Positions 104-58,339 of a stretch of 64,000 nucleotides of DNA are shown one piece after another; position 1 is the first letter of the stretch, and every line of letters starts with the position of its first letter. This DNA comes from a virus. The stretch lies in the IMG/VR virus record IMGVR_UViG_3300014202_001519, one strand, 5' to 3'. A model generated the notes under the pieces. The model was not told where the DNA came from, did no database searches, and worked only from the letters and a program-made list of their open reading frames with translations. The position numbers were made by a program, and so were the translations under genes.

Positions 104-194
104 AAAAGTAAGCGGCAGGGGTGTACGTTGCCATTCGCTGTTGCGCAAGGATAAGACGTTACCCTTATCATCCTACTGGCTAAAAGACAGCCGC

Positions 195-656
195 TCACTT
201 TGAGCTACTTGCGTCCCGATTCCCCTGCCGCTGTATCACGTCCATAGCTTCTTGTGCAAGTTTTGTATCATGCAAACAAGCTACGGCATATTCCGCTAGT
301 TTAACCCGAATCTGGTCTTCGGATAGCGATGATTTATACTTAAAACCATCGTATTCGTTTAAGATGTTGCACATGTAATCATCAATATGCAGACGGTCAA
401 CATGAGCCATTTTCTCTGCCTTTATGAACGTTGCACCGCAATCAGGACACTTATACGTTGGCGGATTTGTGTCGCCATAATAATAAGCATTAGGATGTTT
501 GCATTCAATCATCTTGTTTGCTACGTCTTCATCGTAGAACCGATATCCAGGCACAAGGGATCGGCCCCTAGCCTTCTGTAATTCATCAGGCGTAAAAGTT
601 CTAGTCCTACCAATGTCAGGATCATAAGCGTCTAAATGGTGGTCGCCCCAACCCAT
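195..656 (-). CDS. hypothetical protein (N-terminus resembles pRiA4b ORF-3-like GWxxxHL motif; CPxC)
   Basis: MGWGDHHLDAY and KCPDCG; tiles with neighbours. Confidence 0.4.
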   Translation of the reverse strand: MGWGDHHLDAYDPDIGRTRTFTPDELQKARGRSLVPGYRFYDEDVANKMIECKHPNAYYYGDTNPPTYKCPDCGATFIKAEKMAHVDRLHIDDYMCNILNEYDGFKYKSSLSEDQIRVKLAEYAVACLHDTKLAQEAMDVIQRQGNRDASSSK

Positions 657-3993: not shown

Positions 3994-4098
3994 GCAATTT
4001 CGCAGCAACACCCAACATGAGCTTTGCCGCAACTTCACAACAAAACACAAGCGACTTTACAGCAACTCCCGCTATGAGCTTTGCTGTAACATCACAAC
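3994..4098 (-). repeat. two 48-nt imperfect direct repeats (57-nt period), each forming a hairpin
   Basis: 3994-4041 aligns with 4051-4098. Minus-strand stems TTACAGCAA/TTGCTGTAA and TTGCGGCAA/TTGCTGCGA share an internal AGCTCAT. Confidence 0.7.
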
Positions 4099-4169
4099 GC
4101 TCCCTGCGGGATTCGAACCCGCAACGCACAGTTTTAGAGACTGCCGCTCTGCCATTGAGCTAAGGGAGC
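4098..4169 (-). tRNA. tRNA with CTA anticodon (amber suppressor)
   Basis: GCTCCCT-TA-GCTC AATGGCA GAGC-G-GCAGT CTCTAAA ACTGT-GCGTT-GCGGG TTCGAAT CCCGC-AGGGAGC-G: full cloverleaf, G73, no encoded CCA. Confidence 0.92.
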
Positions 4170-4175
4170 ATACCT

Positions 4176-53047: not shown

Positions 53048-53194
53048 TTATGACAATAACCACAACGATAAGTGGTCATACCCTTTTGGGCAGCTTCTTC
53101 CTCAGAATCAAATCCCACCTTCCTATCACAAGCTCTATGCTTCCGATAGGCTTTGGCGGCTTGTCTGGAAAATTGCTTGTACTTATTCATGGAG

Positions 53195-53266
53195 TGGGCC
53201 TGCCTGGATTCGAACCAGGAACCAAGGTTTTATGAGAACCCTGCTCTGCCGTTGAGCTACAGGCCC
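53195..53266 (-). tRNA. tRNA(CAT), probably Ile2 (lysidine-modified)
   Basis: GGGCCTG-TA-GCTC AACGGCA GAGC-A-GGGTT CTCATAA AACCT-TGGTT-CCTGG TTCGAAT CCAGG-CAGGCCC-A; C4:G69 and C5:G68 match TilS determinants. Confidence 0.88.
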
Positions 53267-56927: not shown

Positions 56928-57223
56928 GCTATTTTAACCCTATCTTCGCGTCTCCTGATATCATAGCCCTTCATCTTATCAAACTTCTTCTCAAAGCAGT
57001 CGTCACAGATGAAGGCTTCGATTTCATCACAGGCAAGCATCTTCTCCATAGGAGATTCGCCTACATGGTTCTTGCGCCCAGCAAAACCATGACATTGATC
57101 GTGGCGAGAGCCATAGTGAAAGGTTACTAGCATGAAGCCAGCATCCATCACATTGCCACGGTGCGATTCACCTGGATCATAGTCCAATTCTTTGTCACAC
57201 ACAAGGCAATTAACTTTTTCCAT
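56924..57223 (-). CDS. zinc-binding hypothetical protein
   Basis: CLVC...ICDDC. Confidence 0.5.
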   Translation of the reverse strand: MEKVNCLVCDKELDYDPGESHRGNVMDAGFMLVTFHYGSRHDQCHGFAGRKNHVGESPMEKMLACDEIEAFICDDCFEKKFDKMKGYDIRRREDRVKIA

Positions 57224-57404
57224 TGATTTTGTCCGTGATAGTGGTTAAGTGGGTTGTGCAGTGGTCGCATATGTTCAGTCTATGCCACTGAATTATGCCT
57301 TTGGATATCGTGCTAATTTGTAGCCCGATCCATCCATTAGTATAATAACCGAATTGATCTTCACTTAACTCCGATGTTTTCGAGCAAATTGAACAATTAA
57401 TCAT
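57210..57404 (-). CDS. zinc-binding hypothetical protein
   Basis: CSIC...ICDHC. Confidence 0.45.
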   Translation of the reverse strand: MINCSICSKTSELSEDQFGYYTNGWIGLQISTISKGIIQWHRLNICDHCTTHLTTITDKINGKS

Positions 57405-57629
57405 TGGTTGTCCCGTAGGCAGGATTCTGTTTTATGCTATCATTTGTCTATTGGCACCGACCATACCCGTTGTGCTGCTCACCCACTGAGTATATTTGGC
57501 TTGCTCCCTCCGTAGTTCAAACGATACTTGCGGCTTTCGCCGCTTTCTCTCCTACGTTAAGCAGTGGAGTCCCGACCTTCCTCACATCCCTTGCGGGGTA
57601 GTGCGATAGCTCAGACAACCAATGATTAA
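57397..57629 (-). ncRNA. rnpB: RNase P RNA (compact, reduced specificity domain)
   Basis: 16-bp P1 (57614-57629 with 57397-57412), P2 GCTATC/GATAGC, GAGGAAGGTCGGGACTCC (CR-I), GGAGCAAG..CAAATA, and AAAACAGAATCCTGCCTAC (CR-V/P4). Confidence 0.88.
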
Positions 57630-58339
57630 ATTGCATCCAGATACTGTGTCCAATATATCAAGTTCTCATTACCTTCCGTGACCAATTGCTTGCCATCCAT
57701 TTCATAAAGCGACGACGCACCCTTCCAATCGCTATTCAGCAAAGTAAACTTCCGACGAATATGACCCAACATAATCGTCGCCTTAGCCAACATGATGTTC
57801 TTAAAGACTTCCTTGCCCATGCCGCCACAATTAAGAACATCAAGACCCTTGGATTTGGCTATGTCGTCAAACAAAACCTTAGTTTCGTTATAACAAGCCT
57901 CAAGCTGCTGAGGGTCCAACTCAATCTGTAGGACTGGTGCGCCAAGCATCAGCAGTGTGTGGTCAATAGACAACTGTTTGTCAGGAGCTTCAAACGGCGT
58001 GTTATCCCTTATAAGTTGCTGTGCTTCTATAAGTGGTGGTTGTGTCCCATCCAAAGAGAAAACTTCAATTTTGGTTTCTTGGTTACGAACAGGAACAATG
58101 ATTAGCTCCCAATCGTCAAGAGCCTTTCTTATATCCTGCTTATGCCATCTTTCCTTCATTCGATCAATGAACGCCTCGGCCTTATAAGGTGGAAGCTGGC
58201 CAACGTTCAAGGTAAGGCAAATAAATCCCCTGGACCTCTTTGGTACAATTGCAATATCGCCTTTGGCGACTTGGGCGACGGCACCCAGGCCAAGAAAACC
58301 AGCGATCCAGGCCATGAAGCCTCTACGATTCTTGTCCAT
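57626..58339 (-). CDS. twin-arginine-like leader + portal (gp20)-like segment + neck (gp13)-like segment
   Basis: NRRGFM..., LNVGQLPPYKAEAFIDRMK, MLGAPVLQIEL and LGHIRRKF...DGKQLVTEG. Confidence 0.6.
   Translation of the reverse strand: MDKNRRGFMAWIAGFLGLGAVAQVAKGDIAIVPKRSRGFICLTLNVGQLPPYKAEAFIDRMKERWHKQDIRKALDDWELIIVPVRNQETKIEVFSLDGTQPPLIEAQQLIRDNTPFEAPDKQLSIDHTLLMLGAPVLQIELDPQQLEACYNETKVLFDDIAKSKGLDVLNCGGMGKEVFKNIMLAKATIMLGHIRRKFTLLNSDWKGASSLYEMDGKQLVTEGNENLIYWTQYLDAI

Follow-up and report, generated by a model that had tools for sequence, protein, structure and literature searches.

The 64,000-nucleotide (nt) stretch of DNA from the virus record IMGVR_UViG_3300014202_001519 (IMG/VR), analysed at its full length and called the window here, contains a gene for a miniature RNase P RNA of 233 nt, roughly half the usual size of this ribozyme, on its minus strand. 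RNA positions are counted from window coordinate 57629 (RNA 1), which puts RNA position n at 57630-n. The gene exactly fills the 222-nt gap between the minus-strand open reading frames (ORFs) 57626–58339 and 57210–57404, and a covariance model of the family, R1, places it at 57396–57629. An earlier note, made from the letters alone, had put an RNase P RNA at 57629 to 57397 on the minus strand, with ends overlapping the flanking stop and start codons. All coordinates given there check out, and both overlaps are confirmed: the upstream ORF ends with its stop codon inside the 5´ strand of helix P1 (RNA 2–4), and the ATG of the downstream ORF, of 64 amino acids (aa), sits in the P1 3´ strand (RNA 226–228). 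The RNA was indeed missed by the ORF track, the sole ORF in the gap being one of 55 aa on the opposite strand. This ORF, at 57434–57601 (+) and antisense to the RNA, is taken to be spurious, an artefact of the RNA gene. A terminator-like site at 57530–57543 (+) is the GAAA hairpin of the RNA read on the opposite strand and looks like an artefact of the same kind.

A covariance-model search, suggested earlier as a check, gave a significant match to RF00010 (bacterial RNase P class A) over model positions 1–367, with 67.8 bits and an E-value of 2.4e-20. The gathering score of RF00010 is 100 bits, and the match therefore appears under E-value thresholds only; at gathering thresholds, Rfam reports two tRNAs over the window and no RNase P RNA. 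The score is low because two parts of the model are reduced in the window RNA: in the specificity domain, 18 nt stand in for a block of 110 model positions, and 1 nt remains where P18 occupies 23 positions. In this alignment, approximately 40% of the ancestral RNA is missing. The fold energy is -79.6 kcal/mol (z = -4.8 versus shuffled sequences). Both the RF00010 match and the fold stability are far above chance.

The window RNA has kept the whole type A catalytic domain (P1–P5, P6, P15–P17, CR-I, CR-IV and CR-V), whereas P18 and nearly all of the specificity domain have been lost, with P7 and a short hairpin remaining (Table 1). The 16-bp terminal helix described earlier pairs perfectly (RNA 1–16 with 218–233) and is followed by two further pairs, and the resulting P1 of 18 bp is unusually long. 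P2 (GCUAUC/GAUAGC), P3 with its GCAA loop, P5 (CUCC/GGAG), GGAGCAAG..CAAAUA and the GGU near L15 (57462–57460) are all present as the earlier note had them, and P2 covaries in relatives. The two catalytic-core signatures, GAGGAAGGUCGGGACUCC at 57583–57566 (CR-I and the P4 5´ strand) and AAAACAGAAUCCUGCCUAC at 57433–57415 (CR-V and the P4 3´ strand), are both there on the minus strand, and the P4 that they were expected to form covaries. The P6 pseudoknot, in contrast, had to be reassigned. The six positions of the pairing first proposed, CCACUG with CAGUGG, pair in just 15–29 of 37 relatives, and this candidate was rejected; the covarying P6 is formed by CUGCU (57564–57560) with AGCAG (57479–57475) in L17. 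The reduction of the specificity domain to approximately P7 and a GCGGC-GAAA-GCCGC hairpin was borne out, with P8–P14 gone, and the absence of P18 is a loss that had not been listed before. The GAAA hairpin may correspond to P8 or P9 and may keep a loop-helix contact with P4 or P1; the L8-P4 contact is a major interdomain contact of type A RNAs (PMC8457005).

Table 1. Elements of the miniature RNase P RNA in RNA numbering and window coordinates.
Element	RNA positions	Window coordinates	Strand	Basis or remark
Miniature RNase P RNA gene, 233 nt		57397..57629	-	RF00010 match, R1 match and inter-ORF gap
P1 5´ strand	1-18	57612..57629	-	pairs with 57397-57415; 8/8 modelled P1 pairs compensatory
P1 3´ strand	215-233	57397..57415	-	partner of P1 5´ strand
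P2 5´ strand, GCUAUC	20-25	57605..57610	-	pairs with 57436-57441 (RNA 189-194, GAUAGC)
P3 hairpin, GNRA (GCAA) loop	27-47	57583..57603	-	inner helix pairs in 100% of cells
CR-I and P4 5´ strand	47-60	57570..57583	-	A51, A52 invariant; U55 (57575) bulged
P4, U55 bulged	52-60 with 206-213		-	covariation
P5 5´ strand, CUCC	61-64	57566..57569	-	pairs with GGAG 57504-57507 (RNA 123-126)
P6 pseudoknot 5´ strand, CUGCU	66-70	57560..57564	-	pairs with AGCAG 57475-57479 (RNA 151-155) in L17
Specificity-domain remnant	74-119	57511..57556	-	P7, GA, stub helix, then single-stranded GUUnnnA
P7, 5 bp	74-78 with 115-119		-	covariation
GCGGC-GAAA-GCCGC hairpin carried by stub helix		57530-57543	-	sequence
J5/15, CAA	127-129	57501..57503	-	A128, A129 invariant
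P15-P16-P17 arm	130-174	57456..57500	-	all three helices covary
P15	130-132 with 172-174		-	covariation
P16	138-142 with 162-166		-	covariation
P17	144-146 with 156-158		-	covariation
L15 GGU	168-170	57460-57462	-	kept in 35-36/37
CR-IV joining region, GCCAAUAGACAAAU	175-188	57442..57455	-	P18 site in type A RNAs; P18 absent here
J2/4, CR-V (ACAGAA) and P4 3´ strand	195-213	57417..57435	-	RF00010 alignment, covariation

Covariation and conservation in the RNA family

The blastn search of the window RNA against the phage collection retrieved LR756511 and LR756502 only, and two other members used as queries added none; a covariance model was therefore needed to find further members. R1 was built from three RNAs, those of the window, LR756511 and LR756502. 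Compensatory changes in P1, P4, P5, P7, P15 and P16 are already present among these three, and RNAalifold recovers the same helices unaided. The model was run on IMG/VR loci retrieved by two short degenerate patterns, one from CR-I and one from the CR-IV/CR-V regions, and identified 48 full-length relatives in viral contigs, 37 of them distinct, with lengths of 198–298 nt and GC contents from 31% to 60%. The R1 scores are bimodal: family members score at least 45 bits, and all other loci score 28 bits or less. Two curated huge phages, LR756511 and LR756502, carry further copies, and so does a cultured phage of Stenotrophomonas, DLP6 (KU682439.2, 105769–106019; 46.5 bits with R1). A search with the exact CR-I 19-mer brought up a single locus (L003), which is unrelated, has no R1 match and was rejected.

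The RF00010 model matches the DLP6 copy with 54.7 bits (E 8e-15) and the copy in carrier genome G002 with 55.5 bits (E 5e-17). The LR756502 copy matched RF00373 alone among the Rfam models, and some family copies are invisible to RF00010 altogether. The family escapes standard annotation because the copies scored against RF00010 (55–68 bits) fall under its gathering score.

The modelled helices form standard pairs in 93.2% of cells, compared with 36–41% when the partner strand is slid by 1–3 columns. The compensatory changes in homologues that had been suggested as a second check are abundant: 40 of the 44 modelled pairs changed on both sides, with 475 doubly compensated cells, and none of 500 shuffles reached the observed covariation values. 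P4 pairs in 97% of cells (19–41% slid) and has 77 doubly changed cells. P5 and P7 pair in 99% and 97% of cells, with compensatory changes at 4/4 and 4/5 pairs, respectively. In the P15-P16-P17 arm, 98%, 84% and 97% of cells are paired in P15, P16 and P17, all with compensatory changes. Two helices lie outside the R1 structure yet pair throughout the family: P2 in 91% of cells (22–55% slid) and the P6 pseudoknot in 95% (25–52% slid). The P6 covariants across relatives include UUGC/GCAA, CCAC/GUGG, CCGC/GCGG and GAAC/GUUC. In an alignment of 16 diverse members made by MAFFT and folded by RNAalifold, which involves no model fitting, P3, P4, P5, P7, the stub helix, P15 and P16 are recovered, and 23 of the 31 consensus pairs are compensatory.

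One specificity-domain module is common to all members. It consists of P7, GA, a helix of 3–4 bp and a single strand, G-U-U-n-n-n-A, that leads back to P7. The stub helix usually carries a short loop, often A-rich or GNRA, and is sometimes expanded. These observations place the window RNA in a conserved phage family under structural selection.

The nucleotides of the active site are kept almost without exception. A51 and A52 in CR-I and A128 and A129 in J5/15 are present in 37/37 sequences, the bulged U55 in 36/37, and the GGU in L15 in 35–36/37. From the RF00010 alignment and the established numbering, we take A51/A52 to be A65/A66 of the E. coli RNA, U55 to be U69, A128/A129 to be A248/A249, and the GGU to be G292, G293 and U294. 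These E. coli nucleotides bind catalytic metal ions or contact the substrate, and the L15 GGU of type A RNase P RNA pairs with the 3´ CCA of tRNA.

Genome neighbourhood, tRNA genes and expression

The window, a fragment of a huge-phage genome, has a GC content of 42% and is 91–94% coding under table 11, with genes almost all on the minus strand. Its proteins are of kinds typical for large phages and have PHROG and Pfam matches to an ATP-dependent DNA ligase and to nucleotide and sugar metabolism enzymes, and weak matches to the Gp23 capsid protein. LR756511.1, an uncultured phage of 595 kb, has the RNA and five flanking proteins in collinear order, with 74% nucleotide identity for the RNA and approximately 43% identity for the flanking proteins. 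The second homologue lies at ~614.7 kb in LR756502.1 (642 kb), which matches one of the four largest curated genomes in PMC7162821. The claim of a phage-borne RNase P RNA with a reduced specificity domain is thus supported by RF00010 homology, synteny with LR756511 and covariation in the family. The flanking ORFs have no protein-family match and are conserved in LR756511 only, and no co-located protein cofactor was found among them. A tblastn search of a 967-aa ORF against phages gave no match. Pfam matches in the window also include translation-related genes (an IF-1/eIF-1A fold and the peptidyl-tRNA hydrolase PTH2) and an ADP-ribosylation set (PARP, ADP-ribosylglycohydrolase and NADAR).

Table 11 gives intact genes and 91% coverage of the window, and TAG ends 27 of 108 predicted ORFs. 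A recoded genetic code was rejected on this basis, and recoding cannot extend to the whole phage. A tRNA that suppresses amber codons (anticodon CUA) nevertheless lies at 4097–4170 (-), and stage-specific or partial read-through of TAG is possible.

The carriers of the RNA are rich in tRNA genes. Among eight near-complete carrier genomes, five of 425–642 kb have 72, 77, 55, 60 and 50 tRNA genes, and three of 82–169 kb have 36, 26 and 28. These tRNAs are often arrayed with spacers of a few nucleotides. In DLP6, the RNA fills an unannotated gap between the coding sequence AAY80_165 and a tRNA-Arg gene, with 7 nt between its end and the tRNA. The G002 copy has a tRNA on either side, and the copies in G031 and in the 3-kb contig L155 are likewise located in tRNA arrays. 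The two tRNAs of the window do not encode CCA. PF01743 (PolyA_pol), a family that includes CCA-adding enzymes, is found in all five large carrier genomes searched (W01, W02 and G001–G003). The PF01743 matches lie in long open frames of 899 aa (G001), 931 aa (G002) and 657 aa (G003); an example of the match in W02 is 598559–598936.

In G031, a second and weaker match resembling the miniature RNA (23.9 bits, 177 nt) was observed at 71621–71797 (L131:1501–1677). It lies ~470 nt from the first copy, at 72265–72474 (L130:1501–1710), inside a tRNA array with weak tmRNA-like matches. Two other IMG/VR contigs (L048 and L049) share the identical RNAs of G031, including the second match.

LR756502 also encodes the protein subunit RnpA, with 52.5 bits for TIGR00188 (cut-off 38.35) and 52 bits for PF00825. 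The open frame has 131 aa, of which a 101-aa core carries the TIGR00188 score, with an RNRVKR motif, and it is located at ~525.2 kb (L124:1498–1800 (+)), ~90 kb from the RNA. This phage thus has genes for both subunits of an RNase P holoenzyme. A six-frame phmmer search did not find rnpA in the 64-kb window. Searches of five carrier genomes detected neither a full-size RNase P RNA nor a specificity domain encoded as an RNA of its own.

In bacterial assemblies, the CR-IV-P2-CR-V motif occurs mostly in full-size type A RNAs of Bacteroidota (340–385 nt, 225–270 bits), and the miniature form occurs in short contigs only, which are probably mis-binned phage. The shared motif hints that the family may have been captured from a Bacteroidota-like host. 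One such contig, L155 (JAAXWV010000224.1, 3,053 bp, from a Candidatus Roizmanbacteria bin), carries a miniature RNA at 314–548 (-) with 60.7 bits for R1, beside 12 tRNA genes. It is probably a fragment of a phage tRNA array that was mis-binned into a bacterial metagenome-assembled genome (MAG).

The expression data are Logan contigs, which cannot show transcript ends. Public runs contain relatives of this stretch only, with a share of ~0.05, and come from sediment, freshwater sediment and soil. In a sediment metatranscriptome, a 978-nt contig matches 57411–57621 with 6 differences and then diverges; it is deeper than neighbouring contigs. Contigs from sediment, freshwater sediment and soil match the RNA gene (57411–57621) at 94–97% identity and diverge at or near its borders, which indicates that close variants of the RNA occupy different gene neighbourhoods. 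The RNA is better conserved than its flanks.

Proposed role and alternative explanations

The window RNA is likely to be an active phage RNase P RNA that removes the 5´ leaders of pre-tRNAs, usually with host RnpA and in LR756502 with the phage RnpA, reading its substrate through the acceptor stem and CCA. The analysis establishes the homology of the RNA, its structure and conservation, its distribution and what it co-occurs with, and we infer transcription, protein partner, catalysis and substrates as follows. The RNA would be made within a minus-strand polycistronic transcript and trimmed to the long P1 helix. It would then fold to the catalytic core and bind RnpA, the host's in most carriers and the phage's own in LR756502. 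The ribonucleoprotein could cut the 5´ leaders off the many, often tightly arrayed, pre-tRNAs of the phage, recognizing them by the acceptor stem and CCA end and not by the T-loop. A CCA-adding-family enzyme of the phage may work alongside the RNA, and the two together would give the phage its own tRNA maturation capacity during infection. A role in phage tRNA maturation fits the tRNA-rich carriers, the location in arrays, the CCA-adding-family proteins and the one phage RnpA.

Several observations weigh against this reading. The elements that normally bind the tRNA T-loop (P8–P14, CR-II and CR-III) are missing, as are the L18-P8 and L9-P1 tertiary contacts that stabilize the fold, so that the RNA could be far from cellular RNase P in its efficiency or in its range of substrates. 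The protein partner is assumed in most carriers: of 47 carrier records, 46 lack rnpA (PF00825), and these 46 include eight that are at least 90% complete. Host RnpA as the usual partner is consistent with this absence. The window RNA itself lies outside a tRNA array, the nearest tRNA being a tRNA-Met at 53194–53266, ~4 kb away. No sigma-70-like promoter or intrinsic terminator was found nearby on the strand of the RNA, which makes co-transcription with the flanking genes followed by processing the simplest assumption. The metatranscriptome contig may derive from DNA, and its presence in an RNA library is the sole hint of expression. Finally, the retrieval patterns came from CR-I and from CR-IV/CR-V, which accounts for part of the conservation seen in these regions. 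It was the CR-IV/CR-V pattern, however, that brought in most members, and these still have CR-I; J5/15 and the GGU lie outside both patterns, and the DLP6 copy, which was found by the model alone, agrees on the conserved nucleotides.

A stronger form of the proposal is possible, though we put it forward tentatively. The RNA may belong to a self-sufficient, RNA-based system for tRNA 5´ maturation with a new natural RNase P architecture, a bacterial catalytic domain with the P7-stub module and without the canonical T-loop-binding domain. Its partner would be the phage RnpA (in LR756502), an unrecognised phage protein or none, and it would be tuned to the densely arrayed pre-tRNAs of the phage. 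Such a system might insulate phage translation from host RNase P and from host defences acting on tRNAs.

Alternatively, with T-loop recognition lost, the main substrates of an active ribozyme could be phage or host mRNAs, tRNA-like elements or other structured RNAs, in operon processing or in the degradation of host RNA. Cellular RNase P cleaves some non-tRNA substrates, the specificity domain is cut to P7 and the stub in every member, and the window RNA lies between protein genes with P1 overlapping a stop and a start codon, all of which would suit such a role. The strong association with very large tRNA sets and tRNA arrays and the conservation of the CCA-pairing GGU make it unlikely. Moreover, the family has no conserved flanking genes that would make an alternative substrate stand out.

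A non-catalytic decoy is a quite improbable explanation. The RNA would mimic the RnpA-binding face, soak up host RnpA and stop host tRNA maturation as part of host takeover. RnpA contacts of type A RNase P are all within the catalytic domain, which is the part retained here, and rnpA is missing from most carrier genomes. Such a role was proposed for the camelpox RNase P-like RNA (PMC3001073). Against a decoy, the family keeps, with few or no exceptions, the nucleotides that serve chemistry and substrate docking and not protein binding, namely the bulged U, the CR-I adenines, the adenines of J5/15 and the GGU in L15. The P6/P15–P17 substrate pocket also covaries. The carriers themselves, with 26–77 tRNA genes each, need tRNA processing, and LR756502 adds an RnpA of its own instead of removing that of the host.

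The window could also be cellular, for example from a reduced-genome bacterium with an unusually small RNase P RNA. We regard this origin as very improbable, although the window is a genome fragment and not a whole genome, and a few miniature copies occur in bacterial MAG bins, such as L155 ('Roizmanbacteria'). The synteny with the curated huge phage LR756511, the PHROG family matches together with the weak Pfam matches to Gp23 capsid, and the dense gene layout on nearly one strand argue for a phage, and relatives are known from terminally repeated, complete phage genomes and from cultured DLP6. L155 is a 3-kb fragment with 12 tRNAs, which is typical of a mis-binned phage tRNA array, and the Bacteroidota genomes that share the motif carry full-size RNase P RNAs of 340–385 nt. 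A decaying, functionless remnant of a host rnpB acquired by chance, to which the score under the Rfam gathering score and the loss of ~40% of the ancestral RNA might point, is effectively refuted by covariation, with the identical reduced architecture in 37 distinct sequences from very different phages (GC 31% to 60%), the 475 doubly compensated cells in modelled helices and a copy in LR756511 that is 74% identical when the flanking proteins are ~43% identical.

Comparison with known RNase P RNAs and viral ribozymes

The RNase P RNA that trims tRNA precursors is considered a ribozyme of cells and organelles. No description of a phage RNase P RNA was found across 8.1 million PMC papers and bioRxiv or in the key huge-phage papers, and the family is apparently an unpublished structural and host-range variant of a known ribozyme. 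As a conserved phage family whose catalytic core is intact, it would provide the first convincing case of an RNase P RNA encoded by a virus and rank among the smallest known bacterial-type RNase P RNAs. It would offer a natural test of how dispensable the specificity domain and the L8/L9/L18 tertiary braces are, and 5´-end processing would join the translation functions of huge phages (tRNAs, CCA-adding-family enzymes, IF-1 and others). The copy in the cultured phage DLP6 makes these questions directly testable.

The sole viral RNase P-like RNA found in the literature is the inactive one of camelpox virus and other orthopoxviruses. It is likewise virus-encoded and similar to RNase P RNA; it did not process pre-tRNA, and its likeness extends to parts of the secondary structure only (PMC3001073). 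The phage RNA, in contrast, aligns with the Rfam model over its full length and has the catalytic nucleotides in place. Theta ribozymes, which are related to those of the hepatitis delta virus, are found next to phage tRNAs and have been proposed to mature phage tRNAs, including suppressor tRNAs (PMC10879173). They differ in class from RNase P RNA, cleave themselves and have the 3´ trailer as their site of action; the same paper leaves tRNA 5´ maturation to cellular RNase P.

Archaeal type T is a natural minimal RNase P RNA of ~200 nt that keeps the catalytic domain and has lost most of the specificity domain (PMC3579882). Its catalytic domain is of the archaeal type, with a 3-bp P2, and its partners are Pop5, Rpp30 and Rpp29 (PMC3579882). 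The phage RNA resembles type T in that most of the specificity domain is absent, but it has a covarying P2 of 6 bp and the bacterial P6, P16, P17 and GGU features. The bacterial type A model is the best in the clan for the window RNA, although the LR756502 copy matched RF00373 only. The likeness to type T is one of convergent reduction and not of membership.

The features of the phage RNA mark bacterial type A RNase P RNA (RF00010; E. coli M1 RNA, rnpB) as its ancestor, and it would work in the same way. The catalytic domain is common to both: P4 with its bulged U, CR-I (GAGGAA..UC) and CR-V (ACAGAA), the framework of P1-P2-P3 and P5 with all helices covarying, the P15-P16-P17 arm, the GGU in L15 and the P6 pseudoknot to L17. 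Among Rfam families, RF00010 gives the window RNA its highest score, and the CR-IV-P2-CR-V signature is shared with the full-size RNase P RNAs of Bacteroidota. The phage RNA differs in its length (198–298 nt versus 340–385 nt in the Bacteroidota RNAs checked), in the absence of P8–P14 (with CR-II and CR-III) and of P18, in its P1 of 18 bp, in scores of 55–68 bits against a gathering score of 100 bits, and in being encoded by phages. The catalytic domain of the E. coli RNA alone still cleaves substrates with reduced efficiency, according to the abstract of PMC5839562. In comparison with that engineered domain, the phage RNA appears to be a natural and evolutionarily maintained counterpart, which also lacks P18 and keeps the conserved module of P7 and its stub.

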